Shown here: positions 4,510 through 45,953 of the stretch, piece by piece | Layout of the letters: every line of letters starts with the position of its first letter | How positions within the stretch are numbered: position 1 is the first letter of the stretch | Sequence record: MH051915 | Direction: 5' to 3' (one strand) | Length of the DNA: 64,000 bases | Origin: Enterobacteria phage vB_EcoM_IME339 | Notes under the pieces: model-generated | The model's database searches: none | Seen by the model: only the letters and a program-made list of their open reading frames with translations | Told to the model about the DNA's origin: nothing | Made by a program: the position numbers and the translations under genes

Positions 4510-4552
4510 TCACAAAACGGTTTACATCTCTGTTCTTCCATGGTACTATACA
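4510..4552 (+). promoter_or_regulatory. T4-type early promoter within a repeated promoter-leader cassette
   Basis: ttttcacaaaacgGTTTACAtctctgttcttccaTGgTACTAT. Confidence 0.6.
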
Positions 4553-4592
4553 ACTATCAACTACTGATACAGAAAACAACTTGGAGAATGAA
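4538..4592 (+). repeat. conserved promoter-leader cassette (PeSL-like), copy 1
   Basis: tggtactatacaactatcaactactgatacag...ttggagaatgaaATG; near-identical copies at about 19695, 21135 and 45905. Confidence 0.6.
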
Positions 4593-4856
4593 ATGGATAA
4601 TTACGGCGAACTGTTCAACTTCTTTATGAAATGCGTTTCAGAAGATTTCGGTCGTACAGTGAATGATATTAAAGTTATCGGTCCTGATCATCCGATGTTT
4701 GAAACTTACGCAGTAATGGGTAATGAAGATGGTCAGTGGTATACTGTAAAGGTTGTGATTAACATGTTTACAGCAGAAGGTTATGTTAAACTGTCTTCTA
4801 AAGTTTACCACGATAACGACGAAATCGCAGAAGAATATTTCAATAATATGAAATAA
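4593..4856 (+). CDS. hypothetical protein
   Basis: ORF track starts at in-frame TTG 4581; ATG 4593 with GGAG RBS 6 nt upstream chosen. Confidence 0.5.
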   Translation: MDNYGELFNFFMKCVSEDFGRTVNDIKVIGPDHPMFETYAVMGNEDGQWYTVKVVINMFTAEGYVKLSSKVYHDNDEIAEEYFNNMK

Positions 4857-4911
4857 GTTTACACAGGCTCATGATTGAGATATTATGAGCCTGTAACTTG
4901 AGGAGAACATA

Positions 4912-5310
4912 ATGAATATTGAAGATAAAGAAATGCGAGAGTTATATAATTCATTAACACCCGAACAACAAAAAGCTGCCAAAGAATTAGAGAAAGCTCT
5001 TAGTTTAAGCTTGACAAAAACTGATTGGGCCGCCGTGTATGAAGAAAAAATGAGGTCTGAAAATGAAGCTATCGAGAGAAATGAATGGATTGTAAACACC
5101 AAGATTAGTTCTGATGGCTGCTCTGTTGAGGTGTCAGCTGTAGTTAAAGGTACTCATGGCGAAGAATCATGGGGCTGGCATAATGAGGCAAACAAATATA
5201 TTGTTCTCTCAACGTCAAAAACTTATGGTCAAAAGGTTCCTGTATCCAAAGCTATTATTAAGCAAGCTCAATGGGAAGCCAATGAAATCTGTCTCGCAAA
5301 AATGAAATAA
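4912..5310 (+). CDS. hypothetical protein
   Basis: 132 aa ORF with gaggagaacataATG RBS. Confidence 0.5.
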   Translation: MNIEDKEMRELYNSLTPEQQKAAKELEKALSLSLTKTDWAAVYEEKMRSENEAIERNEWIVNTKISSDGCSVEVSAVVKGTHGEESWGWHNEANKYIVLSTSKTYGQKVPVSKAIIKQAQWEANEICLAKMK

Positions 5311-5384
5311 CATGTTTACATTTCTCAAATAACAGGATATAATTCTACACGGATTTTAAATCTTAATCAACCTAAGGAAATATT

Positions 5385-5978
5385 ATGAACACACTGAAGA
5401 AAATTGTTGAGTTTATTCGCACTAAACTTGGTTCTGCTATGGCTAAAAATCTATCTGTCGAAGAACAGTATACTGCTGCAGCAGCAAAACTACTTGATAA
5501 AATTAAAGATCTAAAAACTGCTTCTGTTAAATCTATTAATGAAGAAAAACGTATTCGTGAACTTATTGTCGAAAAGAATCGACAGGCTGAATCAAAAGAG
5601 CGTGAAATTCGTAAACTTCTTTCCGAAGGTCAAGATGTAACAATGCACGCTAAACTCGGCTTGCTATATCGTCGAACGGCTGAGCAGTTGACTACTAAGG
5701 CTGACGGTTATGCTGAAATGCGAATTGAAATCGCTAAGAAAGTAGTTGAGTTAGATGATGCTCGTCAAGAACTTGCAGTTAAATTGGAATATATCCGTGA
5801 AACTCGTGCAGCAAATGCCCTTGGAATTAGTACTGCAGATGATGTAGTTGAAATCGCAGCGCTGACTAAGGTTGATATTGAAGATACCCTTGCTCGAGTT
5901 GAAACCTTTAACGGTAATATTTCCGGGGTTGAAACTACCTCTGCCGATGTCCAGGAATATATTAATTCTCTGAAATAA
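5385..5978 (+). CDS. coiled-coil protein with weak PspA/IM30-like character
   Basis: 197 aa; N-terminal amphipathic segment then long heptad-like K/E/R-rich helices; resemblance to PspA is by eye only. Confidence 0.5.
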
Positions 5979-5982
5979 TGAT

Positions 5983-6000
5983 AAGGGGCTTCGGCCCCTA
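5983..6000 (+). terminator. UUCG-tetraloop hairpin (terminator or RNA-stability element)
   Basis: aaggggcttcggcccct; no long T-run. Confidence 0.45.
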
Positions 6001-6019
6001 TTACTTGGAGTAAATAGGA

Positions 6020-6625
6020 ATGAAAATGCAAAGTGATTTCAATTCAATGTTTGAAGAGTTCCAAAGACAGGTTGATGTTCCAGACCAATTACTAAATGCT
6101 CTTAAACGTATGGCAGAAGGACGTAATTATTATTGGGGGTCTTCATATGAAACTGATGAAAGTCTTTCTGGATTTTATAAAGGTAAAAAGTCTTTAATAC
6201 GTCCTGGAATACTTATTAAAAGTATTGAATCAATTCATTCATTGACATGTGATTTTGATGTTGAATTTACTGATTTCATTTCTCCTGAATGGACAGTTTG
6301 TTATTTAAATGACGATTATGATTATCTTGGCGTTTATAGTTTAAGTGACGCATGGTTTAAACGTAATTTACAAAAGTCAAATTTGTTCTATATTGATACT
6401 ACGGTAAAATTTCAGGGAAAGAAATATTTCTTTACTCTTATAGTTGATTCTGAAACAAAGCATGAAAATAAACGTATTCTTAGCAAAAAGAATATCTTAA
6501 CTATTGTTGATGATCTTTTTGATAAATTCGTGGAAAATCCTAATTTTGAAAGCGATTTATTATTAGAAAAATTTGTTAAGGAATGTAGAGAATATGTCAA
6601 AGCCATCACTATACCTTCCAAGTAA
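6020..6625 (+). CDS. hypothetical protein; C-terminus carries ..FVKECREY.. motif shared with next three genes
   Basis: 201 aa ORF; start could alternatively be ATG 6026. Confidence 0.5.
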   Translation: MKMQSDFNSMFEEFQRQVDVPDQLLNALKRMAEGRNYYWGSSYETDESLSGFYKGKKSLIRPGILIKSIESIHSLTCDFDVEFTDFISPEWTVCYLNDDYDYLGVYSLSDAWFKRNLQKSNLFYIDTTVKFQGKKYFFTLIVDSETKHENKRILSKKNILTIVDDLFDKFVENPNFESDLLLEKFVKECREYVKAITIPSK

Positions 6626-6986
6626 ACCTGTGAAGTATGAATTAAAGCGCCAGCTAATTTCTACTGATGTATTAATAGGTCCTGTTATACTCATATCATT
6701 TGTAATTCTATTGATTATTGGAGGTGTTTTAGATGTTATGACTGATATTGATTCTGGCGAAATACTTGTGTTAATGCTAATTCTTCCATTAATAGTTCCA
6801 CTTTTATTAGTACCTGTAAATTGGATAGGATATTGGTATCAAGGAAGACATTATCGTAAACGTGTACGTGATTGGAAAGCACAGTGTAAAAAGATTAAAA
6901 AGGAACACCAGCTTAAACTTGTTGAGTATGAATTTAATGAAATTATGAAATTTGTTAAGGAATCACGATGCAAAAGCCAAAACTAA
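6594..6986 (+). CDS. membrane protein, tandem paralog family member 1
   Basis: ORF track 6573; ATG 6594 chosen; hydrophobic helices; C-terminal ...IMKFVKESRCK. Confidence 0.5.
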   Translation: MSKPSLYLPSKPVKYELKRQLISTDVLIGPVILISFVILLIIGGVLDVMTDIDSGEILVLMLILPLIVPLLLVPVNWIGYWYQGRHYRKRVRDWKAQCKKIKKEHQLKLVEYEFNEIMKFVKESRCKSQN

Positions 6987-7330
6987 ATAAAGTCAAATAT
7001 TCGTTCCCCGAGGCACTATTAATTCTTGCCGTGTCAGTATTTGCAGCTCTTGCTGGTAGTCTTATTGGATTGTTAATTGACTGTATTATTTTAAACATCG
7101 ATGGTTCAGCAATTATAACAGAGGTTTGGAGTGAACTTCGTTTTACTATAGCGATTACATTATTTTCATTCTTTGGTACCATGCTATATTTTCATTATGA
7201 TAATTTTAAAATAAATTGGCAAAGAAAAAAGGATTACAAAATACAATTAAAAGAATATAATAGCTACATGTCTTATATTGAAAATGAATCAATGAAAGAG
7301 TTTGTGAGTGATTGCAGGAAAATCAAATGA
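6968..7330 (+). CDS. membrane protein, tandem paralog family member 2
   Basis: 120 aa; hydrophobic helices; C-terminal ...MKEFVSDCRKIK; start overlaps upstream gene end. Confidence 0.5.
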   Translation: MQKPKLNKVKYSFPEALLILAVSVFAALAGSLIGLLIDCIILNIDGSAIITEVWSELRFTIAITLFSFFGTMLYFHYDNFKINWQRKKDYKIQLKEYNSYMSYIENESMKEFVSDCRKIK

Positions 7331-7815
7331 TTTTAAAAACTCGCTGGTATGATTTAGATGACGGGGATGATGGCATTTCAGTTGATAGAGTTGACTGGAA
7401 TGGCTGTTCCGAAGATATGAAAAATTTGCTGATTAGGGAGTTTAGAATGGGATATCAACCAGTTAAGCCATCTACTGCAACAGATGATAAATTCGTGTGT
7501 ATTCATAATGGTCGCGCTAAATTAACGAACGCTGATTGGTTCACAGATAAGATTATGATTCTGTGGTATATTATTAGTTTTCCTGTGACATCATTTGTAT
7601 TTTGCTTCTTTGGAGAAAGTCCAGTAGGCAGAACGGAAGATTGGATTCTTTTAATTATACTTGTTAATATTTTTACAGCAGCAGTACTATCAGGAATATG
7701 GTGCGTGTTCATTGAAATGCCATGGCGGTTACGTAGGCAGCAAAAGATTTTTGATGAAAAGAAATATACTCAAAATTTAAATAATTTTATCACTGAATGC
7801 AGGAAATTAAAATGA
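7327..7815 (+). CDS. membrane protein, tandem paralog family member 3
   Basis: ORF track 7312; ATG 7327 overlaps upstream stop (ATGA); C-terminal ...NNFITECRKLK. Confidence 0.5.
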   Translation: MILKTRWYDLDDGDDGISVDRVDWNGCSEDMKNLLIREFRMGYQPVKPSTATDDKFVCIHNGRAKLTNADWFTDKIMILWYIISFPVTSFVFCFFGESPVGRTEDWILLIILVNIFTAAVLSGIWCVFIEMPWRLRRQQKIFDEKKYTQNLNNFITECRKLK

Positions 7816-8252
7816 AAACATTATCAGCTGGTATTATCTTTATGACAGAAGATAAAGATTTATTTATGGGACGAGTTACTGGTTCTCGTAAGCCTGGAAT
7901 GATGGCACATCGTTGGGATATTCCAAAGGGGCGTGTAGAAAGTTCTGATTTGAATGCACTGGAAGCTGCAAAAAGAGAATGTTTAGAAGAGACTGGCTTT
8001 AGTAATTATAATCCAGACCTTCTAGAAGACCTAGGTGTATTTAAATATTCTAGTAATAAAGACTTACAGTTGTTTTATTATACGATTCCAGTAGAGCATG
8101 AGATGTTTAGAAATTGCCATTGTGAGTCTTATTTTGAAAATAAAGATGGCGTTATGATTCCAGAGATGGATGCTTTTGCTCTTATTCCTCGTACTCAGTG
8201 GCAATATGTGATGGCTCCTTCACTTTACCGAATAATGAACAGCCTCTTTTAA
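7812..8252 (+). CDS. nudE: Nudix hydrolase NudE
   Basis: Nudix box GRVESSDLNALEAAKRECLEETGF; lies immediately upstream of e as in T4; start ATG 7812 overlapping upstream stop. Confidence 0.8.
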   Translation: MKTLSAGIIFMTEDKDLFMGRVTGSRKPGMMAHRWDIPKGRVESSDLNALEAAKRECLEETGFSNYNPDLLEDLGVFKYSSNKDLQLFYYTIPVEHEMFRNCHCESYFENKDGVMIPEMDAFALIPRTQWQYVMAPSLYRIMNSLF

Positions 8253-8783
<531 letters not shown>

Positions 8784-8784
8784 A

Positions 8785-8818
8785 GTTGTTTACTTTCTCC
8801 TAGAATTGTGATAGTATA
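8785..8818 (+). promoter_or_regulatory. T4-type early promoter upstream of denV
   Basis: aaagttGTTTACtttctcctagaattgtgaTAGTAT. Confidence 0.5.
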
Positions 8819-8842
8819 TTCACAGTTACTTGGAGGGATAAA

Positions 8843-9259
8843 ATGACTCGTATTAATTTGACTTTAGTATCTGAACTTGCTGATCAACATTTAATCGCAG
8901 AATACCGTGAACTGCCGCGTGTTTTTGGTATAGTTCGTAAACATGTTGCAAATGGTAAACGGGTTAAAGATTTTAAAATATCTTCCGAGTTTATTTTAGG
9001 TTCTGGTCATGTTACGTTCTTTTATGATAAGTTAGAATTTTTGCGAAAGCGTCAATCAGACATTATAACGGAATGCTTAAAACGTGGGTTTAGTATAAAA
9101 GATACTGAAGTTCCTGACATCAGCGATATTCCAGCAGAATGGAAAAATGATTATAATCCATGCAAATCAGCTATTAAGTTGAGTCAACAACGACTCGATG
9201 AAAAAATTTTAATGAAGCCACACTGGTATAAATACTACGGTAAAAATATTTACATTTAA
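8843..9259 (+). CDS. denV: endonuclease V (pyrimidine dimer DNA glycosylase/AP lyase)
   Basis: 138 aa [29 protein letters not shown]...; matches remembered T4 endo V. Confidence 0.95.
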
Positions 9260-9268
9260 AGGAAACAC

Positions 9269-9742
9269 ATGAAAACATATCAAGAATTTATCACTGAAGC
9301 AGCTATTAATTCTCAAATTATTGCTGAATCTTTTACTGATCTTTTGAAATTTAAAAAAGGTCAAAAAATCACTGCTGTATTGGATGATGGTACAGAAGTT
9401 GAGATGGATGTACAGGGATATAATTATGCAGTAGATGGAAAACTGTATAATAAATCTCACGCTAAATTTGATTCATTTGACGACTTTGTTAATACAGTTG
9501 AAGATGAAAAAACTCGTAGATCAATTTCAACTGGCGATGCTAAGGTTCTTATGGCGCACGGCCATGAACGTATCCGCGCCAAACAGAATAAAATGGGTGA
9601 AGATAATTTTGCATTAGTTGGTTATCAATCTGGTAAGCAAACTTATGGCTATCAGCGTACTGCTACCATGTATAACAAAAATGGTAAAATCGCTTTCGTG
9701 AATAGCAAAGGCTCTATTCAGTACGTCAAATCATTCAAATAA
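9269..9742 (+). CDS. internal-protein-like capsid-targeted protein (IP family), at the ipII/ipIII position
   Basis: 157 aa; N-terminal MKTYQEFITEAAINSQIIAE capsid targeting sequence; body unlike T4 IPII/IPIII by recall. Confidence 0.65.
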   Translation: MKTYQEFITEAAINSQIIAESFTDLLKFKKGQKITAVLDDGTEVEMDVQGYNYAVDGKLYNKSHAKFDSFDDFVNTVEDEKTRRSISTGDAKVLMAHGHERIRAKQNKMGEDNFALVGYQSGKQTYGYQRTATMYNKNGKIAFVNSKGSIQYVKSFK

Positions 9743-9895
9743 GCAAATAAGAAATATGGGAACAAGCTGGACCTCATGATTCTATGAGGGATTCCCGCCA
9801 ACCTGTAATAAGGTCGAGCCTGAGTGCGGTAATGGGTAAATACAGAAATGGACAATTCATGCGCCATGGAATGGCCCAAATTTAGAGAGAATAAA

Positions 9896-10435
9896 ATGAG
9901 AACATTTTTAACTGGTCCTTATCTATCCCTGATGAATGCTTTTACACACCATTCTGATGCTAGAGTAGAAGAAATTTGTAAAAACGATTATATCCCACCA
10001 TTTGAAGACTTACTCAAACAGTATTGCACACTTCGACTAGATGGTGGACGTCAATCTGGTAAATCAACTGCTGTGACTAACTTTGCTGCTAATTGGCTGT
10101 ATGACGGTGGAACAGTTATTGTTCTTTCTAATACTTCAGCTTACGCTAAAATTTCTGCGGGCCACATTAAAAAAGAATTTTCGCGTTATTCTAATGATGA
10201 TATTCGATTCCGCTTATTTACTGATTCTGTGCGCAGTTTTATTGGCAATAAAGGAAGCAAGTTCAGGGGTTTATTGCTTTCGCGAATTTTGTATATAATT
10301 GATGAGCCTGTTAAAGCTCCCGATATGGATAAAATTTATGATATTCATATTGACACTGTACATTACTGTTGCAATAGCAAGTGTTGCATTGGTGGTATTA
10401 CTCGCCCGCAGTTTTTCGTAATTGGAATGCAATGA
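9896..10435 (+). CDS. P-loop NTPase (terminase-like Walker A)
   Basis: Walker A LDGGRQSGKST and Walker B-like ILYIIDEP; ORF track starts 9848, ATG 9896 with RBS chosen. Confidence 0.5.
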   Translation: MRTFLTGPYLSLMNAFTHHSDARVEEICKNDYIPPFEDLLKQYCTLRLDGGRQSGKSTAVTNFAANWLYDGGTVIVLSNTSAYAKISAGHIKKEFSRYSNDDIRFRLFTDSVRSFIGNKGSKFRGLLLSRILYIIDEPVKAPDMDKIYDIHIDTVHYCCNSKCCIGGITRPQFFVIGMQ

Positions 10436-10761
10436 TGACAGATACGCAACTTTTCGAATATCTTTATTTTTCGCCAAAAACTATTAAAAATAAATTGGTG
10501 AATCATTTTGAAATTTTGGCAAATAACAACGTCTTGAGCGAATTTTATCCTAAGCAATACAAATTACAAAAAGGTGTATTCAAAGGATGCAGAGTTTTGT
10601 GTACTGCTCCTAATGCAAGATTAATGAATAAAATTCCATATTTTACCATGGAATTTATTGATGGACCTTTTAAAGGACTAATCACCCAAAGTTTAATGGC
10701 ATATGATTCTGAGCCATTTTTAATTAAAGAACAATCTTGGATAAATTTATTTTCTAATTGA
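10432..10761 (+). CDS. hypothetical protein
   Basis: ORF track 10381 overlaps upstream gene; internal ATG 10432 at upstream stop chosen. Confidence 0.45.
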
Positions 10762-10769
10762 GAGGTTAT

Positions 10770-11890: not shown

Positions 11891-11925
11891 CTGTTTACTT
11901 TTCCTCTTGACTGTGGTATAATTTT
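11890..11925 (+). promoter_or_regulatory. T4-type early promoter upstream of regB
   Basis: ctGTTTACttttcctcttgactgtggTATAAT. Confidence 0.55.
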
Positions 11926-11949
11926 TCTATCAGTTAAGAGGAGAATAAC

Positions 11950-12411
11950 ATGACTATCAACACAGAAGTTTTTATCCGTCGAAATAAGCTCCGTCGTCAC
12001 TTTGAGTCGGAGTTTCGTCAAATTAACAATGAGATTCGTGAGGCATCAAAAGCAGCAGGGGTCTCATCGTTTCATCTAAAATATTCTCAACATCTTCTTG
12101 ATCGTGCAATTCAACGGGAGATTGATGAGACATATGTTTTTGAATTATTCCACAAAATAAAAGACCATGTTTTAGAAGTTAATGAATTCCTGAGTATGCC
12201 TCCACGCCCTGATATTGACGAAGATTTTATTGATGGTGTTGAATATCGTCCTGGGCGTTTAGAAATCACAGATGGAAATCTTTGGCTTGGATTTACAGTT
12301 TGTAAACCTAATGCGAAGTTCAAAGACCCGTCGCTTCAATGCAGGATGGCAATTATCAACAGTCGTCGTTTACCGGGAAAGGCTTCTAAGGCAGTAATTA
12401 AAACTCAATGA
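11950..12411 (+). CDS. regB: RegB-like site-specific endoribonuclease
   Basis: 153 aa, size and position (upstream of vs/tk) as T4 RegB; sequence recall moderate. Confidence 0.7.
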   Translation: MTINTEVFIRRNKLRRHFESEFRQINNEIREASKAAGVSSFHLKYSQHLLDRAIQREIDETYVFELFHKIKDHVLEVNEFLSMPPRPDIDEDFIDGVEYRPGRLEITDGNLWLGFTVCKPNAKFKDPSLQCRMAIINSRRLPGKASKAVIKTQ

Positions 12412-12418
12412 GGTAAGC

Positions 12419-14532: not shown

Positions 14533-14541
14533 GAAGGTGAT

Positions 14542-15123: not shown

Positions 15124-15132
15124 TGCAAAAGT

Positions 15133-16073: not shown

Positions 16074-16095
16074 TCTCCTTCGGGAGACTTTTTTC
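16074..16095 (+). terminator. intrinsic terminator
   Basis: gtctccttcgggagac + tttttt. Confidence 0.7.
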
Positions 16096-16102
16096 ATTTT
16101 AC

Positions 16103-16136
16103 CGGTTTACTTTCCATTTGAGCTGTGATACTATAC
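16103..16136 (+). promoter_or_regulatory. T4-type early promoter
   Basis: ccgGTTTACtttccatttgagctgtgaTACTAT. Confidence 0.55.
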
Positions 16137-16162
16137 AACCATCGGATAAAGAGGAGAACATC

Positions 16163-16351
16163 ATGAAAATTGAAGCACTTAATCAAGAAGGAAATATCTA
16201 CGTCATCATTAATGGTGATTTTTTCGTCGACATGGATGAAGTTACTAGTGAAGAACTTGTAGAACTTCTTAAGAAACGCTATGATATGTGTGATGAAGCT
16301 GCAACTCATATGGCGTGTGCAATATTCTCTCTTTCATATGTGGTGGAATAA
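16163..16351 (+). CDS. small acidic hypothetical protein
   Basis: ATG 16163 with aagaggagaacatcATG RBS (ORF track 16118). Confidence 0.45.
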
Positions 16352-19626: not shown

Positions 19627-19651
19627 TAGGGAGCCTTCGGGCTCCCTTTTT
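19627..19651 (+). terminator. intrinsic terminator
   Basis: agggagccttcgggctccc + tttttt. Confidence 0.7.
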
Positions 19652-19669
19652 TATTTCAAAATTTTTTCA

Positions 19670-19708
19670 CAAAACGGTTTACAAGCATAAAGCTTTATGG
19701 TACTATAC
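19670..19708 (+). promoter_or_regulatory. T4-type early promoter in repeated cassette
   Basis: ttttcacaaaacgGTTTACAagcataaagctttaTGgTACTAT. Confidence 0.6.
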
Positions 19709-19740
19709 AACTATCAACTGATACGGATTTGGAGAATAAA
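19695..19740 (+). repeat. conserved promoter-leader cassette (PeSL-like), copy 2
   Basis: tggtactatacaactatcaactgatacggatttggagaataaaATG. Confidence 0.6.
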
Positions 19741-20709
19741 ATGAAAACTGTAACTATCAATAAGGGTATCTACTTCGGTAAAGAAATCTCTGGAACTTTT
19801 GAGCTCTTAGGCGAATGGTTCCCAGATAATGCTCCGGTAGATGCACAAGGAGATGGTAAAGTTTTTGTTGAAATTGACGGTAAACGTCGCGGTGTTTGGG
19901 TTTACAAATCAGATATTTCATATGATGGTGTAAAGGTTGAAGAAGTTAAAGAATCGTATGAAGATATGAAAACCCGCATTAATAAAAGATTTAATGTTAT
20001 GGGAATGATGACGAATGGTATTATTAATGGAAATATTCGTTCATTAATTATCTCTGGCGCAGCAGGTATTGGTAAAACGTATTCTTTAGATAAAGCTTTG
20101 AATAAAGCAAATGATATTGGATACATTGAATATAAAAGCATTAATGGTAAAATCTCTGGTATTGGTCTTTATGAGCAGCTTTGGAATAATCGTGAAGAGA
20201 ATTCTGTCCTTTTGATTGATGATGTGGATGTTTTCTCTGATATGGACATTCTTAATCTTCTAAAAGCCGCTCTGGACACCGGAGAGACCCGTAAAGTCTG
20301 CTGGAGCACTGCGTCTTCTTACTTAGAAGAAAAAGGCATTGAGCGTGAGTTTGAATTTAAAGGAACGATTGTTTTTATCACAAACGTTGACATTGACCGC
20401 GAATTAGACCGTGGTACTAAACTTGCTCCACACTTACAAGCATTAGTGTCCCGCTCGGTTTATTTAGATTTGGGTGTTCACACTAATGAAGAAATTATGG
20501 TCAGGGTTGAAGATGTTATTCTTTCAACTGACATGATGCAAAAGCGCGGTCTTTCTGATGAAGAAACTTATAAAGCATTATCATGGATGAAAGTTAATGT
20601 TAATCGTTTACGCAATGTTTCACTGCGTACTGCTCTTTATCTTGCTGACTTTATTATGACCGATAAAAACGGTTGGGAAGAAATCGCTGAGGTTACTCTT
20701 CTGAAATAA
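19741..20709 (+). CDS. P-loop ATPase (AAA+-like)
   Basis: Walker A SGAAGIGKT, Walker B LLIDDVD, sensor-like FITN; ORF track starts at in-frame TTG 19729. Confidence 0.6.
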   Translation: MKTVTINKGIYFGKEISGTFELLGEWFPDNAPVDAQGDGKVFVEIDGKRRGVWVYKSDISYDGVKVEEVKESYEDMKTRINKRFNVMGMMTNGIINGNIRSLIISGAAGIGKTYSLDKALNKANDIGYIEYKSINGKISGIGLYEQLWNNREENSVLLIDDVDVFSDMDILNLLKAALDTGETRKVCWSTASSYLEEKGIEREFEFKGTIVFITNVDIDRELDRGTKLAPHLQALVSRSVYLDLGVHTNEEIMVRVEDVILSTDMMQKRGLSDEETYKALSWMKVNVNRLRNVSLRTALYLADFIMTDKNGWEEIAEVTLLK

Positions 20710-21113: not shown

Positions 21114-21147
21114 TGGTTTACAAGACTGTTCCTCTGTGGTACTATAC
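21114..21147 (+). promoter_or_regulatory. T4-type early promoter in repeated cassette
   Basis: gGTTTACAagactgttcctctgTGgTACTAT; overlaps 3' end of upstream ORF. Confidence 0.55.
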
Positions 21148-21173
21148 AACTATCAACTACGGAGGAACACAAA
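21135..21173 (+). repeat. conserved promoter-leader cassette (PeSL-like), copy 3
   Basis: tggtactatacaactatcaactacggaggaacacaaaATG. Confidence 0.55.
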
Positions 21174-21701
21174 ATGAACGCTAAAGATATTTTCAACTTG
21201 GTAAATTACAACGATGGTAAATTTAAATCTGAAGCGCAAAGCAAGTTCTTTAACGACATCTCAATCGGAGGTGAAATCACTGTTGATGGAGGACAAATTT
21301 ACAAATCCCGTTGGAATTGGATCGTTATTATTGATGAGATCGGTATTGTAGAAATTTACAAAAATACGAATAAAAATCGTACATTGCACTGGTCTCGTGA
21401 TACTAACGAACAGTACAAAAAGGATAAAGCATCTAAATTATCTCGTGTAACTCAAGAAGATATTGAGTTCATCAAGAAAGATATTTTAATGTATGATAAT
21501 TTAATTGCTGAAGAGCAAGCTGTTATTGATAAATTTGACGAGATTAAAGCTTCTCGTGAAATTCCTGATTTTATGAAAGAATCGGTAAATGAACGATACA
21601 CTCTCATTTCAGAGCGTATTGAAACTTACAAAAAGCAAAGAGCTGAACGCCAAAATACTCTTCGGAAGTTTGAAGAACGGTTAAAGACGGTACTCGCATA
21701 A
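21174..21701 (+). CDS. hypothetical protein
   Basis: 175 aa ORF following cassette. Confidence 0.55.
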   Translation: MNAKDIFNLVNYNDGKFKSEAQSKFFNDISIGGEITVDGGQIYKSRWNWIVIIDEIGIVEIYKNTNKNRTLHWSRDTNEQYKKDKASKLSRVTQEDIEFIKKDILMYDNLIAEEQAVIDKFDEIKASREIPDFMKESVNERYTLISERIETYKKQRAERQNTLRKFEERLKTVLA

Positions 21702-35137: not shown

Positions 35138-36340
35138 ATGAAAGTATGTATTTTTATGGCTCGAGGTCTTGAAGGTTGCGGTGTAACTAAATTTTCTCTT
35201 GAGCAACGTGATTGGTTTATTAAAAATGGTCATGAAGTAACTTTGGTTTATGCTAAAGATAAATCATTTACACGTAATTGCGCGCATGATTATAAATCAT
35301 TTTCAATTCCGGTTTTATTGGCAAAAGAATACGATAAAACACTTAAGCTGGTAAATGATTGTGATATTCTAATTATCAATTCAGTTCCTGCTACTTCAGT
35401 CGAAGAAGACACTATTAATAACTATAAAAAAATTATTGATAACATTAAACCTTCAGTTCGTGTTGTAGTTTATCAACATGACCATTCTTCTCTTTCTTTG
35501 CGCCGAAATTTGGGATTAGAAGAAACTGTTCGTCGAGCTGATGTTATTTTTAGTCATTCTGATAATGGTGATTTTAATAAAGTTCTGATGAAAGAATGGT
35601 ATCCAGAAACAGTTTCTCTGTTTGATGATATTGAAGAAGCACCGACTGTATACAACTTTCAGCCTCCTATGGATATTGCGAAGGTTCGATCAACCTACTG
35701 GAAAGATGTTTCTGAAATTAACATGAATGTCAACCGTTGGATTGGTCGTACGACTACATGGAAAGGTTTTTATCAGATGTTTGATTTTCACGAAAAACAT
35801 CTTAAACCTGCTGGACTAAGTACTATTATGGAAGGTCTGGAACGTTCTCCAGCGTTCATTCCTATTAAAGAAAAAGGAATTCCATACGAGTATTATCGTC
35901 TTCATCAAGTAGACCAAATTAAAATTGCTCCTAATTTGCCAACGCAAATTCTCGACCGTTATGTAAATAGCGAAATGCTTGAACGCATGAGTAAATCCGG
36001 ATTTGGTTATCAGTTGAGTAAGTTGGACAAAAAATATCTACAACGTTCTTTAGAATATACTCATCTCGAGCTTGGCGCGTGCGGAACAATTCCAGTATTT
36101 TGGAAATCTACTGGCGAAAATTTAAAATTCCGTGTTGATAATACTCCGTTAATTTCTCATGATAGTGGTATCGTTTGGTTTGATGAAAATGACATGGAAT
36201 CAACATTTGAGCGTATTAAAGAACTGTCATCTGACCGAGCTCTTTATGACTGTGAACGCGAAAAAGCTTATGAATTTTTGTATCAGCATCAAGATTCAAG
36301 CTTCTGCTTTAAAGAACAGTTTGACATTATTACAAAATAA
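35138..36340 (+). CDS. a-gt: DNA alpha-glucosyltransferase
   Basis: 400 aa MKVCIFMARGLEGCGVTKFSLEQRDWFIKNGHEVTLVYAKDKS...; matches remembered T4 alpha-gt. Confidence 0.92.
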   Translation: MKVCIFMARGLEGCGVTKFSLEQRDWFIKNGHEVTLVYAKDKSFTRNCAHDYKSFSIPVLLAKEYDKTLKLVNDCDILIINSVPATSVEEDTINNYKKIIDNIKPSVRVVVYQHDHSSLSLRRNLGLEETVRRADVIFSHSDNGDFNKVLMKEWYPETVSLFDDIEEAPTVYNFQPPMDIAKVRSTYWKDVSEINMNVNRWIGRTTTWKGFYQMFDFHEKHLKPAGLSTIMEGLERSPAFIPIKEKGIPYEYYRLHQVDQIKIAPNLPTQILDRYVNSEMLERMSKSGFGYQLSKLDKKYLQRSLEYTHLELGACGTIPVFWKSTGENLKFRVDNTPLISHDSGIVWFDENDMESTFERIKELSSDRALYDCEREKAYEFLYQHQDSSFCFKEQFDIITK

Positions 36341-36358
36341 AGGGCTTCGGCCCTTTAG
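36341..36358 (+). terminator. UUCG-tetraloop hairpin terminator
   Basis: aagggcttcggccc + ttt. Confidence 0.55.
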
Positions 36359-39662: not shown

Positions 39663-39717
39663 TTTATAAGAGATTATGCTTTAATTTATTAGAGTATAAT
39701 CTCTATGGAGGAAAAAT

Positions 39718-39906
39718 ATGGAATATTCAACTGGACAGCATCTATTAACTATTCCTGAAATAAAACGATATATTCTGAGAAATAATTTTTCTAATGAAGA
39801 GCATATAGTTACTGAATCTATGCTTAAGAATGCATTTAAAGCAGAATATACGAAAATAATGTCCAACAGAAATGAAGCTTGGACTGTTACTGATTATTAT
39901 GACTAA
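39718..39906 (+). CDS. hypothetical protein (45.2 position)
   Basis: 62 aa ORF with ggaggaaaaatATG RBS. Confidence 0.5.
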   Translation: MEYSTGQHLLTIPEIKRYILRNNFSNEEHIVTESMLKNAFKAEYTKIMSNRNEAWTVTDYYD

Positions 39907-39915
39907 AGGTGTATT

Positions 39916-40305
39916 ATGACTAAAATTACTGTGAATTATACTGTTGATGTAAAAGATATTCAGCCAAAACACGTGCGTTCTGATTCAAATCCACAAAACC
40001 AAAATAAAATTCGTCGAGCATGGGTTTTGTCTCTTTCTGATAACGCGATGGAAGTTATTCAGAGCAAAATTAAATCTGCACCTGCTCGTCATGCGTATTA
40101 TGAAGCTATCGATCGTGAAGTAAGTAATAAATGGATTGAACTAATGCGCAAACATACGACAGAATCTCTAAATGCCGGTGCTAAATTTATTATGACTTCA
40201 TGTGGTGAACGTCTTGAAGATGATTATTGTGGTAATGCAGATGAACGTCTAATTGTTGCTGCTCAAATTGTTGCAGAAACAATTGCTGCTGATTTTAATC
40301 GTTAA
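39916..40305 (+). CDS. rpbA: RNA polymerase binding protein RpbA
   Basis: 129 aa, size and position between 46 and 45 as in T4. Confidence 0.7.
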
Positions 40306-40330
40306 TTGCTTTATTAAATTAGTTATAAAA
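40305..40330 (+). promoter_or_regulatory. T4 middle promoter (MotA box + -10) for gene 45
   Basis: aatTGCTTTAttaaattagtTATAAA. Confidence 0.5.
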
Positions 40331-40360
40331 TTAAATCTCATTTGAATTGAAGGAAATTAC

Positions 40361-41047
40361 ATGAAACTGTCTAAAGATACTACTGCTCTGCTTAAAAATT
40401 TCGCTACTATTAACTCTGGTATTATGCTTAAATCCGGTCAATTTATTATGACTCGCGCGGTTAATGGTACAACTTATGCAGAAGCAAATATTTCTGACAC
40501 TATTGATTTTGATGTAGCAATTTACGATTTGAACGGTTTTCTCGGTATTCTGTCTCTAGTTAATGACGATGCAGAAATTTCCCAATCAGAAGATGGAAAT
40601 ATTAAAATTGCTGATGCCCGTTCAACAATTTTTTGGCCAGCAGCTGATCCGAGTACAGTAGTTGCTCCTAATAAACCAATTCCATTCCCGGTAGCATCTG
40701 TTGTTACTGAAATTAAAGCTGAAGACCTTCAACAACTGTTGCGTGTATCTCGTGGTCTGCAGATTGATACAATTGCTATCACAGTAAAAGAAGGTAAAAT
40801 CGTAATTAACGGTTTTAATAAAGTAGAAGATTCTGCTTTGACTCGTGTTAAATATTCTTTGACTCTTGGTGATTATGATGGTGAAAATACATTTAATTTC
40901 ATTATCAATATGGCAAATATGAAAATGCAACCAGGAAATTATAAACTTCTACTCTGGGCAAAAGGTAAACAAGGCGCTGCTAAATTTGAAGGTGAACACG
41001 CGAATTATGTAGTAGCTCTTGAAGCTGATTCTACCCACGATTTTTAA
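40361..41047 (+). CDS. 45: sliding clamp gp45
   Basis: 228 aa MKLSKDTTALLKNFATINSGIMLKSGQFIMTRAVNGTTYAEANISDTIDF...; matches remembered T4 gp45. Confidence 0.95.
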   Translation: MKLSKDTTALLKNFATINSGIMLKSGQFIMTRAVNGTTYAEANISDTIDFDVAIYDLNGFLGILSLVNDDAEISQSEDGNIKIADARSTIFWPAADPSTVVAPNKPIPFPVASVVTEIKAEDLQQLLRVSRGLQIDTIAITVKEGKIVINGFNKVEDSALTRVKYSLTLGDYDGENTFNFIINMANMKMQPGNYKLLLWAKGKQGAAKFEGEHANYVVALEADSTHDF

Positions 41048-41049
41048 TA

Positions 41050-41067
41050 AAGGGCTTCGGCCCTTTA
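41050..41067 (+). terminator. UUCG-tetraloop hairpin terminator
   Basis: aagggcttcggccc + ttt. Confidence 0.55.
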
Positions 41068-41098
41068 TAATTTACACTAAAACTTGAATGAGGAAATT

Positions 41099-42058
41099 AT
41101 GATTACTGTAAATGAAAAAGAACACATTCTTGAACAGAAATATCGTCCATCTACTATCGATGAATGTATTCTTCCCGCCTTTGATAAAGAAACCTTTAAA
41201 TCTATTACAAGTAAAGGTAAGATTCCACATATTATTCTTCATTCTCCTTCTCCAGGAACAGGTAAAACAACTGTAGCAAAAGCATTGTGTCATGATGTAA
41301 ATGCTGATATGATGTTTGTGAATGGATCAGATTGTAAAATTGATTTCGTTCGTGGTCCTTTGACTAATTTTGCCAGTGCAGCTTCATTTGATGGTCGTCA
41401 AAAAGTAATCGTTATTGATGAATTTGACCGTTCAGGGTTAGCAGAGTCTCAGCGACATCTTCGTTCCTTTATGGAAGCTTATAGTTCAAACTGCAGCATT
41501 ATTATTACTGCTAACAATATTGATGGTATTATTAAACCGCTTCAGTCACGCTGCCGAGTTATTACGTTCGGTCAACCGACTGATGAAGATAAAATTGAAA
41601 TGATGAAGCAGATGATTCGTCGATTGACTGAAATCTGTAAGCATGAAGGAATTGCTATAGCTGATATGAAAGTTGTAGCAGCTTTGGTTAAAAAGAATTT
41701 TCCTGATTTTCGTAAAACTATTGGTGAGCTCGATAGTTATTCATCTAAAGGTGTTTTGGATGCTGGTATTTTATCACTGGTTACTAATGATCGTGGTGCT
41801 ATTGATGATGTTCTTGAATCTCTCAAAAATAAAGATGTTAAACAGCTCAGAGCTTTAGCGCCAAAATACGCAGCTGATTATTCGTGGTTCGTAGGTAAAC
41901 TTGCCGAAGAAATTTATACACGCGTAACTCCGCAAAGTATTATTCGTATGTATGAAATTGTTGGTGAAAATAACCAGTATCATGGAATTGCGGCTAATAC
42001 GGAATTACATTTAGCATATCTTTTCATTCAATTAGCATGCGAAATGCAGTGGAAGTGA
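41099..42058 (+). CDS. 44: clamp loader large subunit gp44 (AAA+)
   Basis: 319 aa from ATG 41099: [17 protein letters not shown]...; Walker [11 protein letters not shown], Walker B VIVIDEFD. Confidence 0.93.
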
Positions 42059-42059
42059 T

Positions 42060-42623
42060 ATGAGCTTATTTGAAGATGATATTCAATTAAACGAGCATCA
42101 AGTTGCTTGGTATTCAAAAGATTGGACAGCTGTCCAATCTGCTGCTGATTCTTTTAAGGAAAAAGCTGAAAATGAATTTTTTGAAATAATTGGAGCTATT
42201 AATAATAAAACTAAATGCTCTATTGCTCAAAAAGATTATTCAAAATACATGGTTGAGAATGCATTATCACAATTTCCTGAATGCATGCCAGCTGTATATG
42301 CGATGAATTTAATTGGATCAGGTTTAAGCGATGAAGCCCATTTTAATTATCTGATGGCTGCTGTTCCTCGGGGTAAAAGATATGGTAAATGGGCAAAACT
42401 GGTCGAAGATTCTACTGAAGTATTGATTATTAAGTTACTTGCTAAGCGGTATCAAGTTAATACAAATGATGCAATTAACTATAAATCAATTCTTACTAAA
42501 AATGGAAAACTTCCTTTAGTATTAAAAGAACTAAAAGGTTTAGTCACGGATGATTTTTTGAAAGAAGTGACTAAGAATGTAAAAGAACAGAAACAACTCA
42601 AAAAACTAGCATTGGAATGGTAA
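42060..42623 (+). CDS. 62: clamp loader small subunit gp62
   Basis: 187 aa immediately after 44. Confidence 0.9.
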
Positions 42624-42624
42624 A

Positions 42625-42993
42625 ATGATTGAAATTACTCTTAAAAAACCTGAAGATTTTCTGAAAGTAAAAGAAACTTTGACTCGTATGGGAATTGCTA
42701 ATAATAAAGATAAAGTTCTATATCAGTCCTGCCACATTCTTCAGAAAAAAGGACTATACTATATCGTTCATTTTAAAGAAATGCTTCGTATGGATGGCCG
42801 TCAGGTTGAAATGACAGAAGAAGATGAAGTTCGTCGTGATTCGATTGCGTGGCTGTTAGAAGATTGGGGATTGATTGAAATCGTTCCTGGTCAAAGAACT
42901 TTTATGAAAGATTTGACCAATAACTTCCGAGTTATTTCTTTTAAACAAAAACACGAATGGAAACTCGTTCCTAAATATACGATTGGTAATTAA
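42625..42993 (+). CDS. regA: translational repressor RegA
   Basis: 122 aa MIEITLKKPEDFLKVKETLTRMGIANNKDKVLYQSCHILQKKGLYYIVHFKEM...; position after 62. Confidence 0.9.
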   Translation: MIEITLKKPEDFLKVKETLTRMGIANNKDKVLYQSCHILQKKGLYYIVHFKEMLRMDGRQVEMTEEDEVRRDSIAWLLEDWGLIEIVPGQRTFMKDLTNNFRVISFKQKHEWKLVPKYTIGN

Positions 42994-42995
42994 GC

Positions 42996-43016
42996 AAGGG
43001 GCTTCGGCCCCTTATT
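42996..43016 (+). terminator. UUCG-tetraloop hairpin terminator
   Basis: aaggggcttcggcccctt + atttgg. Confidence 0.55.
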
Positions 43017-43029
43017 TGGAGTATAATAT

Positions 43030-43071
43030 ATCAAGAGCCTAATAACTCGGGCTATAAACTAAGGAATATCT
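43030..43071 (+). promoter_or_regulatory. candidate gp43 translational operator (hairpin next to Shine-Dalgarno)
   Basis: gagcctaataactcgggctataaactaaggaatatctATG; short stem with 8-10 nt loop just 5' of the RBS. Confidence 0.4.
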
Positions 43072-45768
43072 ATGAAAGAATTTTATATCTCTATCGAAAC
43101 AGTCGGAAATAACATTGTTGAGCGTTATATTGATGAAAATGGAAAGGAACGTACTCGTGAAGTAGAATATCTTCCAACTATGTTTAGGCATTGTAAGGAA
43201 GAGTCAAAATACAAAGACATTTATGGTAAAAATTGTGCTCCTCAAAAATTTCCATCAATGAAAGATGCACGAGATTGGATGAAACGAATGGAAGACATCG
43301 GTCTCGAAGCTCTCGGTATGAACGATTTTAAACTCGCTTATATCAGTGATACATATGGTTCAGAAATTGTTTATGACCGAAAATTTGTTCGTGTAGCTAA
43401 CTGTGACATTGAGGTTACTGGTGATAAATTTCCTGACCCAATGAAAGCAGAATATGAAATTGATGCTATCACTCATTATGATTCAATTGACGACCGTTTT
43501 TACGTCTTTGACTTGTTGAATTCAATGTACGGTTCAGTATCAAAATGGGATGCAAAGTTAGCTGCTAAGCTTGACTGTGAAGGTGGTGATGAAGTTCCTC
43601 AAGAAATTCTTGACCGAGTAATTTATATGCCATTCGATAATGAGCGTGATATGCTTATGGAATATATTAATCTCTGGGAACAGAAACGACCGGCTATTTT
43701 TACCGGTTGGAATATTGAGGGATTTGACGTTCCGTATATCATGAATCGCGTTAAAATGGTTCTGGGTGAACGTAGTATGAAACGCTTCTCTCCAATCGGT
43801 CGAGTAAAATCTAAACTAATTCAAAATATGTACGGTAGCAAAGAAATTTATTCTATTGATGGCGTATCTATTCTTGATTATTTAGATTTGTACAAGAAAT
43901 TCGCATTTACTAATTTGCCATCGTTCTCTTTGGAATCAGTTGCTCAACATGAAACCAAAAAAGGTAAATTGCCGTACGATGGTCCTATTAATAAACTTCG
44001 TGAGACTAATCATCAACGATACATTAGTTATAACATTATTGACGTAGAATCAGTTCAAGCAATTGATAAAATTCGTGGGTTTATCGATCTAGTTTTAAGT
44101 ATGTCTTATTACGCTAAAATGCCTTTTTCTGGTGTAATGAGCCCTATTAAAACTTGGGATGCTATTATTTTTAACTCACTGAAAGGTGAACATAAGGTTA
44201 TTCCTCAACAAGGTTCGCACGTTAAACAGAGTTTTCCAGGTGCATTTGTGTTTGAACCTAAACCGATTGCTCGTCGATACATTATGAGTTTTGACTTGAC
44301 GTCTCTGTATCCTAGCATTATTCGTCAGGTTAACATTAGTCCTGAAACTATTCGTGGACAGTTTAAAGTTCATCCAATTCATGAATATATCGCAGGAACA
44401 GCTCCTAAGCCAAGTGATGAATATTCTTGCTCTCCGAATGGATGGATGTATGATAAGCACCAAGAAGGTATCATTCCAAAGGAAATCGCTAAAGTATTTT
44501 TCCAGCGTAAAGATTGGAAAAAGAAAATGTTCGCGGAAGAAATGAATGCCGAAGCTATTAAAAAGATTATTATGAAAGGTGCAGGGTCTTGCTCAACTAA
44601 ACCAGAAGTTGAACGATATGTTAAGTTCAATGATGATTTCTTAAACGAATTATCGAATTACACCGAATCTGTTCTTAATAGTCTGATTGAAGAATGTGAA
44701 AAAGCTGCTACACTTGCTAACACAAATCAGCTGAACCGTAAAATTCTTATTAACAGTCTTTATGGTGCTCTTGGTAATATTCATTTCCGCTACTATGATT
44801 TGCGAAATGCTACTGCTATCACAATTTTCGGTCAAGTTGGTATTCAGTGGATTGCTCGCAAAATTAATGAATATCTAAATAAAGTGTGTGGAACTAATGG
44901 TGAAGATTTCATCGCAGCAGGTGATACTGATTCGGTATATGTTTGTGTAGATAAAGTTATTGAAAAAGTAGGTCTTGATCGCTTTAAAGAACAAAATGAT
45001 TTAGTTGAATTTATGAATCAGTTTGGTAAGAAAAAGATGGAACCTATGATTGATGTTGCATATCGTGAGTTATGTGATTATATGAATAACCGCGAGCATC
45101 TGATGCATATGGACCGTGAAGCTATTTCTTGCCCTCCGCTTGGTTCAAAGGGTGTCGGTGGATTTTGGAAAGCGAAAAAACGTTATGCTCTGAACGTTTA
45201 TGACATGGAAGATAAGCGATTTGCCGAACCGCATCTAAAAATTATGGGTATGGAAACTCAACAGAGTTCAACACCAAAAGCAGTACAAGAAGCTCTCGAA
45301 GAAAGTATTCGTCGTATTCTTCAGGAAGGTGAAGAGTCTGTCCAAGAATATTACAAGAACTTTGAGAAAGAATATCGTCAACTTGATTATAAAGTTATTG
45401 CTGAAGTAAAAACTGCGAACGATATAGCGAAATATGATGATAAAGGTTGGCCAGGATTTAAATGCCCGTTCCACATTCGTGGGGTGCTAACTTATCGTCG
45501 AGCTGTTAGTGGTTTAGGTGTAGCTCCAATTTTGGATGGAAATAAGGTAATGGTTCTTCCATTACGTGAGGGAAATCCATTTGGTGACAAGTGTATTGCT
45601 TGGCCGTCGGGTACGGAACTTCCAAAAGAAATTCGTTCTGATGTACTGTCTTGGATTGACTACTCAACTTTGTTCCAAAAATCGTTTGTTAAACCGCTTG
45701 CGGGTATGTGTGAATCGGCAGGTATGGACTATGAGGAAAAAGCTTCGTTAGACTTCCTGTTTGGCTGA
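43072..45768 (+). CDS. 43: DNA polymerase gp43 (family B)
   Basis: 898 aa; exonuclease and polymerase motifs incl. SLYPS, KILINSLYG, GDTDS. Confidence 0.97.
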   Translation: MKEFYISIETVGNNIVERYIDENGKERTREVEYLPTMFRHCKEESKYKDIYGKNCAPQKFPSMKDARDWMKRMEDIGLEALGMNDFKLAYISDTYGSEIVYDRKFVRVANCDIEVTGDKFPDPMKAEYEIDAITHYDSIDDRFYVFDLLNSMYGSVSKWDAKLAAKLDCEGGDEVPQEILDRVIYMPFDNERDMLMEYINLWEQKRPAIFTGWNIEGFDVPYIMNRVKMVLGERSMKRFSPIGRVKSKLIQNMYGSKEIYSIDGVSILDYLDLYKKFAFTNLPSFSLESVAQHETKKGKLPYDGPINKLRETNHQRYISYNIIDVESVQAIDKIRGFIDLVLSMSYYAKMPFSGVMSPIKTWDAIIFNSLKGEHKVIPQQGSHVKQSFPGAFVFEPKPIARRYIMSFDLTSLYPSIIRQVNISPETIRGQFKVHPIHEYIAGTAPKPSDEYSCSPNGWMYDKHQEGIIPKEIAKVFFQRKDWKKKMFAEEMNAEAIKKIIMKGAGSCSTKPEVERYVKFNDDFLNELSNYTESVLNSLIEECEKAATLANTNQLNRKILINSLYGALGNIHFRYYDLRNATAITIFGQVGIQWIARKINEYLNKVCGTNGEDFIAAGDTDSVYVCVDKVIEKVGLDRFKEQNDLVEFMNQFGKKKMEPMIDVAYRELCDYMNNREHLMHMDREAISCPPLGSKGVGGFWKAKKRYALNVYDMEDKRFAEPHLKIMGMETQQSSTPKAVQEALEESIRRILQEGEESVQEYYKNFEKEYRQLDYKVIAEVKTANDIAKYDDKGWPGFKCPFHIRGVLTYRRAVSGLGVAPILDGNKVMVLPLREGNPFGDKCIAWPSGTELPKEIRSDVLSWIDYSTLFQKSFVKPLAGMCESAGMDYEEKASLDFLFG

Positions 45769-45780
45769 TAGAATAAATCT

Positions 45781-45803
45781 AGGGACCTCCGGGTCCCTTT
45801 TTC
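45781..45803 (+). terminator. intrinsic terminator
   Basis: gggacctccgggtccc + tttttc. Confidence 0.7.
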
Positions 45804-45884
45804 ATACAAGTAATATAAATCTATACTTAGGAAAAATAGATGATTCTGGACCTCTGGAATTCATTAAAAATTTTTTTCACAAAA

Positions 45885-45918
45885 TGGTTTACATCCCGGT
45901 TCCTTTGTGGTACTATAC
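45885..45918 (+). promoter_or_regulatory. T4-type early promoter in repeated cassette
   Basis: tttttcacaaaatgGTTTACAtcccggttcctttgTGgTACTAT. Confidence 0.6.
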
Positions 45919-45953
45919 AACTATCAACTACTGATACAGATTTGGAGAATGAA
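45905..45953 (+). repeat. conserved promoter-leader cassette (PeSL-like), copy 4
   Basis: tggtactatacaactatcaactactgatacagatttggagaatgaaATG. Confidence 0.6.

Follow-up and report, generated by a model that had tools for sequence, protein, structure and literature searches.

Four promoter-leader cassettes and their counterparts in T4

The 64,000-nucleotide stretch of Enterobacteria phage vB_EcoM_IME339 analyzed here (sequence record MH051915; the whole stretch is referred to as the window) contains four copies of a composite intergenic unit, or cassette, in which an AT-rich tract, a sigma-70-like promoter, a Shine-Dalgarno (SD) sequence and a start codon lie within ~100 bp. BLAST searches of three window segments against a phage collection found hundreds of Tequatrovirus (T4-like) genomes with 93-98% identity. 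Local BLAST showed that the window, with a G+C content of 34.7%, is colinear with T4 (NC_000866) from 74.9 kb of T4 (window position 1) down to 7.7 kb (position 63466), with an overall divergence of 5-7% and with 19 indels or replacements breaking the colinearity. Given that the T4 coordinates descend along the window, its + strand corresponds to the T4 minus strand, i.e., to the direction of early transcription. The genes follow one another in the order 57A/ipI, tRNA cluster, e, denV, regB, tk, nrdC, 49, nrdD, 55 and 47-46; then 45-44-62, regA, 43, imm, 42, uvsX, 41, 61, dam, 56 and soc; and finally mrh, modA/B, srd, dda and dexA, to motB.2.

An earlier sequence-only reading had placed the unit at 4510-4592, 19670-19740, 21114-21173 and 45885-45953, and direct reading and alignment located it at all four sites, where the copies can be aligned over ~100 columns on the + strand. 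Cassette 1 (4488..4595), which precedes an e.8-like open reading frame (ORF) of 87 aa (4593-4856), consists of a UP-like A/T tract with TTTCACAAAA (~4497-4518), the -35 GTTTACA (4520-4526), TGG (4541-4543), the -10 TACTAT (4544-4549), a predicted +1 at A4556 and a leader of 4556-4592, with GGAGAATGAAA at 4583-4593 and ATG at 4593-4595. Cassette 2 (19629..19743) begins with a UUCG terminator hairpin (19629-19646) and a T-run, followed by a UP-like tract, the -35 GTTTACA (19677-19683), the -10 TACTAT (19701-19706), a predicted +1 at 19713, GGAGAATAAAA at 19731-19741 and ATG at 19741-19743; its gene is an nrdC.10-like ORF of 322 aa (19741-20709) with weak AAA/STAND NTPase matches. Cassette 3 (21116..21176) starts directly after the stop codon of an nrdC.9-like gene, with the -35 GTTTACA at 21116-21122, the -10 TACTAT at 21140-21145, a predicted +1 at 21152, the SD sequence GGAGG at 21161-21165 and ATG at 21174-21176, and precedes an nrdC.8-like ORF of 175 aa (21174-21701). 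Cassette 4 (45843..45956) has a UP-like tract, the -35 GTTTACA (45887-45893), the -10 TACTAT (45911-45916), a predicted +1 at 45923, GGAGAATGAAA at 45944-45954 and ATG at 45954-45956, and precedes an imm.1-like lipoprotein ORF of 126 aa (45954-46334; DUF5481, E 4.5e-69). The copies had been described as flanking accessory ORFs and often preceding a small or unknown gene. They stand before genes, not in pairs around them, and two of the genes, with products of 322 and 175 aa, are not small.

All four copies share GTTTACA-N17-TACTAT with TGG, a TGn-type extended -10, directly before the -10, and after the -10 each continues with ACAACT and then ATCAAC. The usual distance of 7 nt after the -10 would place the +1 at the A of ATCAAC (4556, 19713, 21152 and 45923), which gives predicted leaders of 37, 28, 22 and 31 nt for cassettes 1 to 4, respectively. 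At the 3' end of the unit, GGAG is followed by six more bases and the ATG. The A/T tract AAAAA(A)TTTTTTCACAAAA at about -59 to -38 and the UP-like A/T-rich stretch AAAAATTTTTTCACAAAA, which may act as a UP element, are found in cassettes 1, 2 and 4. Upstream of cassette 3 is merely the moderately A/T-rich tail of a coding region; this copy lacks TTTCACAAAA, and its leader is the shorter ACGGAGGAACACAAAATG, so that the A/T tract and the ...TTGGAGAAT leader previously ascribed to it are absent. We also considered TCACA of the upstream tract as a CRP half-site; the second half-site is absent, and TCACA was treated as part of the UP-like tract.

The likeness of the copies extends beyond the promoter hexamers. 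The 21-mer TGGTACTATACAACTATCAAC occurs exactly four times in the window, always on the + strand, and had no match in 100 shuffles even with 3 mismatches allowed. When the window was compared with itself by BLAST, 7 of the 11 non-trivial hits linked the four copies, and the best one joined cassettes 1 and 4 (4506-4573 vs. 45873-45940, 89.7% over 68 bp). We then compared all + strand GTTTAC[A/T]-N17-TAnnnT sites (n = 23) pairwise over 64 non-hexamer positions. The five most similar pairs all came from the four copies, with a mean of 42.5/64 identities, compared to 23.3 +/- 5.4 for other pairs. Self-alignment and pair comparison thus agree that the shared unit is more than a pair of hexamers. 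The four copies form the top of a continuum, to which the promoter at 1352 comes near, and the longest exact identity between copies is 33 nt for one pair and 22-24 nt for the others. A longer repeat for cassettes 1 and 4 was also considered, as they have TTCTGGACC...GAATTC in common upstream with an indel of ~70-80 nt between; this similarity is too short to exclude chance and was not used.

The same 21-mer is found in T4 at the orthologous places before e.8 (70675), nrdC.10 (55363), nrdC.8 (53922) and imm.1 (27059), as well as upstream of motA (163652) and ndd.6 (167065), and T4 copies with 2-4 mismatches precede motB, frd.3, ndd.4, rI.-1 and denV. In an old record of the T4 ndd region (X75802), promoter annotation with -35 and -10 signals is given for two family members, and one related phage record labels the e.8 copy a T4-type early promoter. 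A 90-nt cassette query matched 549 phage records (E < 1e-3), nearly all of Tequatrovirus, at ~8 places per genome. Relative to the four T4 promoters, the positions and the 21-nt core are identical, the leaders are almost identical, and the architecture matches the UP/-35/TGn/-10 "uber" type with "additional regions of consensus" that a review of T4 prereplicative expression describes for early promoters (PMC2988021). The differences are at the strain level: the spacer of the window imm.1 copy differs from that of T4 at 8/14 positions and resembles the e.8 type, and the upstream context of cassette 1 is altered by an inserted ORF (3878-4351). The -35/-10/TGn architecture and the orthology to T4 early promoters therefore support the assignment of the four units to the T4-type early (sigma-70) promoters. 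Probably they represent one sub-family of such promoters that is fused to a leader and a translation start, which is the picture known for PeSLs (promoter-early stem-loops), i.e., elements that combine an early promoter and a stem-loop with an AT-rich tract, an SD sequence and a start codon and that lie in hyperplastic regions beside indels (PMC2839356, PMC4122927).

Leaders, putative RegB/S1 sites and hairpins

In the proposed mechanism, host RNA polymerase would bind the A/T-rich UP-like tract, the -35 GTTTACA and, 17 nt downstream, the TGn-extended -10 TACTAT, and would begin transcription at the A of ATCAAC, ~7 nt past the -10. When folding was started at the predicted +1, the leaders proved unstructured, with minimum free energies of 0 to -2.6 kcal/mol and z-scores of -0.4 to +1.0 relative to shuffles, which makes them suited to ribosome loading and to RegB/S1. 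Such an open leader of 22-37 nt, with GGAG 6 nt before the ATG, should permit strong translation immediately after infection.

In early T4 mRNAs, RegB acts with ribosomal protein S1 on a single-stranded site of 11 nt, within which the RNA is cut (Durand et al., 2006, PMC1702504) and for which the T4 consensus is GGAGAAUAAAA or, in degenerate form, GGAGRAYARAA (PMC1702504). Cassette 2 matches this consensus at 11/11 positions (GGAGAATAAAA, 19731) and cassettes 1 and 4 at 10/11 (GGAGAATGAAA, 4583 and 45944), while cassette 3 has a GGAGG variant, GGAGGAACACA, at 21161. The leader of cassette 1 is almost identical to that of T4 motB, the model substrate in the same study, where motB and motA were good RegB substrates and nrdC.8 was "moderately cleaved" (PMC1702504); the T4 orthologue of the cassette 3 gene is thus a message that is cut only moderately. 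As in T4 early mRNAs, the consensus sites overlap the SD sequence in RNA that is predicted to be unstructured, and cutting is predicted here as well. The regB gene is itself in the window (11950..12411, + strand; PF10715, E 1.4e-68), where it is preceded by an early promoter at 11893 and by a site of the same kind, GGAGAATAACA, at 11940. The messages from the cassettes would accordingly be expected targets of RegB, which, with S1, would cut the GGAG and its A-rich tail and silence them within minutes.

The claim that the cassettes often follow a UUCG-hairpin terminator holds for cassette 2, whose hairpin at 19629-19646 has a folding energy of -18.9 kcal/mol, and fails for the other three. Cassettes 1 and 4 contain no significant fold, and their nearest terminators lie farther upstream: ~140 nt before cassette 1 there is a terminator with a GAAA loop (4361-4380), and ~90 nt before cassette 4 the UCCG-loop terminator of gene 43 (45782-45797 plus a T-run). 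The hairpin of cassette 3 lies across the -10 (-20 to -27 kcal/mol, z about -5). Its arms, at 21127-21140 and 21156-21169, form an inverted repeat around the -10 and the +1, in which the promoter spacer is base-paired with the SD sequence. In the folding models, RNA reading through from upstream forms a hairpin of -27 kcal/mol in which the SD sequence is buried, while RNA started at the promoter does not have the 5' arm and is open (0 kcal/mol). The read-through RNA would thus hide the ribosome site of the nrdC.8-like gene, and RNA begun at the internal promoter would expose it. Late promoters inside hairpins control translation in the T4 genes e, soc, 49 and I-TevI (PMC3014915). These published internal promoters are late, whereas that of cassette 3 is early and its function is a prediction; for early promoters, we found no description of the arrangement in the literature. 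The promoters at 8788, 11893, 55842, 57956 and 62918 likewise lie inside strong inverted repeats that enclose the -10 and the start (z -4 to -6.6), and the promoter spacer pairs with the SD sequence of the downstream gene in about 6 of the 23 sites.

Probable gene exchange at the cassettes and competing explanations

The likeness of the copies has two possible sources, of which the first would be selection on the consensus core and on the RegB/SD 3' end. At the four loci, the window and T4 differ at 0/84 core positions and 11/56 spacer positions, which is consistent with selection on the core. In register with ACAACTATCA, the 19 non-family promoters of the window and 30 of T4 have a..c.TAT.A after the -10; the invariant core therefore equals the general consensus of T4 early promoters and start regions. 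GGAGAAT(A/G)AAATG is found at fixed spacing in at least six non-family promoter leaders too, which makes it a general early-gene signal and not one specific to the four copies. Because the core follows the early-promoter consensus and the 3' end combines the RegB/S1 site with the SD sequence, part of the likeness needs no mobility. Pure functional convergence toward an optimal early promoter, start region and RegB/SD site, with no role for recombination, could build on these facts, on the conservation of the cassette positions with T4 and on the failure to find a predicted deletion between cassettes 2 and 3 (see below). We consider it an unlikely explanation of the whole, as it does not account for the similarities and junctions that follow.

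Spacers and leader interiors, for which no constraint is known, are alike in some pairs of paralogues at 12/14 positions or more. The 14-nt spacer agcataaagcttta is identical in nrdC.10 and frd.3, spacer plus leader (~60 nt) are common to nrdC.8 and ndd.4 in one phage, and the leader ACTACTGATACAG is common to e.8, imm.1, motB and motA. The T4 ndd.6 copy even runs on into ATGAAAATCGCT, which is the first 12 nt of imm.1, and then into an 8-codon remnant.

The claim that the repeats are recombination substrates shuffling gene modules among T4-type phages was followed up in ~35 cassettes retrieved with the core as bait; in IMG/VR, the core is found in only 21 stretches. Ten phages were compared at the imm.1 locus. 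The spacer there is of the aga... or the tcc... type, the leader of the tactgata... or the tgata... type, and the gene that follows is imm.1 or an extra ORF of 78 aa. Any two of these features are found in every combination within ~60 bp, a pattern that requires recombination or conversion inside the cassette. In PP01, HY03 and four IMG/VR contigs, the extra ORF at this locus starts at the ATGAAAAT of the cassette and is followed by imm.1. At the nrdC.10 locus, one of the sequences (L023) has ~720 bp with small ORFs inserted directly after CTATCAA and closed by a second promoter-with-hairpin ending in CTATCAAatcaaaGGAGAATAAAATG, and EH2 has a third allele, in which CTATCAA is again directly followed by extra coding sequence. 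The cassette of the ndd.6 locus keeps the same upstream half throughout, while leader and gene differ between T4 and four other contigs. Homology with other phages thus stops inside the cassette at three loci. Outside Tequatrovirus, Salmonella phage STML-198 (Gelderlandvirus) has at 1497-1550 the core and leader (45/47 nt) without the -35, TGATACTATACAACTATCAACTGATACGGATTCGGAGAATAAAATATG, directly 3' of an ADP-ribosyltransferase gene and before an unrelated 59-aa ORF, in flanks dissimilar to Tequatrovirus. This promoter-less copy is reminiscent of what Comeau et al. call "degraded half PeSLs" (PMC4122927).

Further evidence comes from the comparison of the window with T4, in which 6 of the 38 homology edges fall in early-promoter spans, as opposed to 1.8 expected (P about 0.008). 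These edges, at early promoters other than the four copies, bound three events, i.e., replacement of e.7, absence of ipIII/ipII and a replacement at 51819-52450. At the e.7 position (4912-5310) there is an unrelated 132-aa ORF; T4 homology is lost at its start codon (4916) and regained only at 5368, past the -10 of the promoter at 5314, so that the swap is bounded by two promoter cassettes (4857 and 5314). The genes ipIII/ipII (1.1 kb in T4) are missing, and denV comes directly behind the early promoter at 8788, downstream of gene e. Over the first 294 nt, this denV has just 78% identity to that of T4, and a 620-bp stretch without a T4 match follows (region 8780-9760).

These results agree with the reading of the cassettes as a sub-family of early promoters whose copies are alike not only through selection but also, as the second source, through common ancestry combined with recombination or gene conversion among them. 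Conserved blocks of promoter, terminator and leader sequence would then serve as homology patches for general recombination, through which small early genes may be gained, lost or swapped together with their expression signals. Several points weigh against this reading. The four window copies lie at no synteny break between the window and T4 and are stable on that time-scale. All of them are direct repeats, so that recombination between two copies would remove 1.4 to 41 kb, and cassettes 2 and 3 (19677 x 21116) are the sole pair with dispensable-looking genes between them. None of the 498 records matching a synthetic query for the predicted junction of this deletion covered at least 80% of it, and the two best partial matches, one of them in EH2, were ordinary nrdC.8 cassettes; the query is a database proxy for recombination that rare events may escape. 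About 50 bp of identity has been cited as sufficient for T4 recombination (Arbiol et al., PMC2839356), and the exact identities of 22-33 nt between window copies are below this length. The null of the edge-enrichment estimate is uniform and ignores the general intergenic preference of indels, the invariance of the core in the mosaic set is circular in that its loci were retrieved with the core, and +1, promoter strength and RegB cutting are drawn for this phage from sequence and T4 literature. Shuffling of modules is thus supported by the imm.1, nrdC.10 and ndd.6 loci elsewhere and not by the four window copies, which are colinear with T4. To call the cassettes mobile is an overstatement, as there is no sign that they move autonomously.

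On a bolder reading, crossovers would occur preferentially at the core, through an exchange process that is dedicated or guided by microhomology and that would homogenise the ~8 cassettes of a genome by concerted evolution, with gene cassettes hopping between loci and even genera. We keep it in view, at a low probability, because junctions lie right after CTATCAA, the Gelderlandvirus copy is so well preserved and the identity tracts are shorter than ~50 bp. The same observations (i.e., the nrdC.10 and ndd.6 junctions in or right after the core, the core and leader amid unrelated flanks in another genus, and identity tracts short for general recombination) could be taken for an integron-like mobile element with the invariant 21-24 nt core as the recombinase or nuclease site for insertion and excision of cassettes, a possibility left open by Arbiol et al. 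(PMC2839356). This is highly improbable: no recombinase is associated with the copies, the junction varies in position (behind CTATCAA, behind ATGAAAAT or in the spacer), the promoter consensus explains the core, and the copies are positionally stable between T4 and the window.

It is harder still to see the leader as a structured or trans-acting regulatory RNA, such as a riboswitch, a target of small RNA or a protein operator. About 13 nt of the leader (ACTACTGATACAG) do recur in two window copies and, in complete or almost complete form (ACTACTGATAC[A/G]G), in several copies of T4, which would suit such a role. The leaders are, however, no more folded than shuffles, a small TATCA/TGATA stem is lost in cassettes 2 and 3, and Rfam found no family within the cassettes and only 8 tRNAs in the whole window. 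Chance or low-complexity similarity, to which the AT-richness of the genome and the simple sequence of the A/T tracts might lend itself, can practically be dismissed given the four exact 21-mers against none in shuffles and the preservation of the units in ~549 genomes.

Related promoters, neighboring features and known systems

Shorter versions of the unit had been proposed for seven sites, all of which are early-promoter-like. TTTCACAAANNNGTTTACA is exact at 974, 1340 and 31830, has 1 mismatch at 59279 and 3 at 57944, whereas at 8788 and 62918 the similarity is confined to aaagttGTTTACT. A search with TTTCACAAANNNGTTTACA, which is also exact in three of the four main copies, gave 13 matches vs. 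2.3 expected. The related promoter at 974..1015 (+ strand) has the form TTTCACAAAGTT-GTTTACA (986)-N17-TACTAT with a hairpin around the -10. Further early-promoter-like sites outside the family are found on the + strand at 1352, 4857, 5314, 8788, 11893, 16105, 16896, 24100, 31842, 51353, 51841, 52451, 55842, 57956, 59291 and 62918. Two of them belong to a second repeat pair, in which a UUCG hairpin, TTTTTTCATTTTACCG and GTTTACT (16105) at 16078..16165 (+ strand) have a twin at 55810-55870 (promoter 55842); self-BLAST aligned 16088-16116 with 55825-55853 at 96.6% identity. The pair, in which a UUCG/UCCG terminator hairpin is followed by TTTTTTCATTTTAC(C/T)G and then GTTTACTTTCC, stands before rI.-1-like and mrh.2-like genes, and its terminator-then-promoter order is the classic PeSL layout.

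The window has other notable features. The ORF inserted upstream of cassette 1 (157 aa, 3878-4351; region 3800-4395) is absent from T4. It is preceded by TATAAATA (3832-3839), which resembles a late promoter, and on either side of it stands a copy of the hairpin that terminates T4 rnaC (3808-3832 and 4367-4391; 96% identity between the two). The arrangement suggests that duplicated terminators enclose an insertion of the moron type. SA21RB, a related phage, carries the ORF together with a further one. The eight tRNA genes detected with Rfam lie at 2368-3118, compared to eight in T4 and eleven annotated in SA21RB, and the tRNA/segB region is one of the synteny breaks between the window and T4 (2885-3488). 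A perfect 22-nt palindrome, AGATTGGACAGCTGTCCAATCT, lies in a coding region at 42119-42140, probably in the gene 62/44 area by colinearity with T4, and a 22-nt exact direct repeat (36336-36357 and 41046-41067, 4.7 kb apart) is unrelated to the promoter family.

Among known systems, the cassettes come closest to the PeSLs, which recombine into mini-circles in RB49 and phi1 (PMC2839356, PMC4122927). All four copies fit the T4/PST PeSL consensus TTTACW-N17-TAYWAT (Comeau et al., 2014, PMC4122927). They also share with PeSLs the AT-rich tract, the early promoter and the 3' SD sequence with ATG, as well as the location in hyperplastic regions (e.x, nrdC.x and downstream of gene 43), and indels and gene swaps start at the cassettes in related phages. 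The published T4/PST example, ndd.4/.5, is in the ndd region, where T4 has family copies before ndd.6 and ndd.4. The stem-loop sets the copies apart: it is clear within or beside cassettes 2 and 3 and doubtful for cassettes 4 and 1, whose nearest hairpins lie 90-140 nt upstream. In the gain and loss of small accessory genes along with expression signals, the cassettes are also similar to integron attC/attI cassettes and lambdoid "morons," an analogy drawn by Arbiol et al. (2010, PMC2839356). They differ from integrons in having no integrase, no defined att site and variable junction positions, and from morons in that the conserved regulatory sequence itself is the likely exchange site.

The cassettes belong to an already-known class of elements, and their analysis confirms the published biology of T4 and PeSLs in one more Tequatrovirus without a new principle. 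Their main use in this window is in annotation, where they point to early transcription units, to probable targets of RegB and to probable boundaries of modules. For T4-like phages, they represent one accepted route by which small genes for host takeover and defence-related functions are gained and lost. They would drive the first minute of infection, in which the phage would out-compete host promoters and, together with RegB, confine its early proteins to a sharp pulse.

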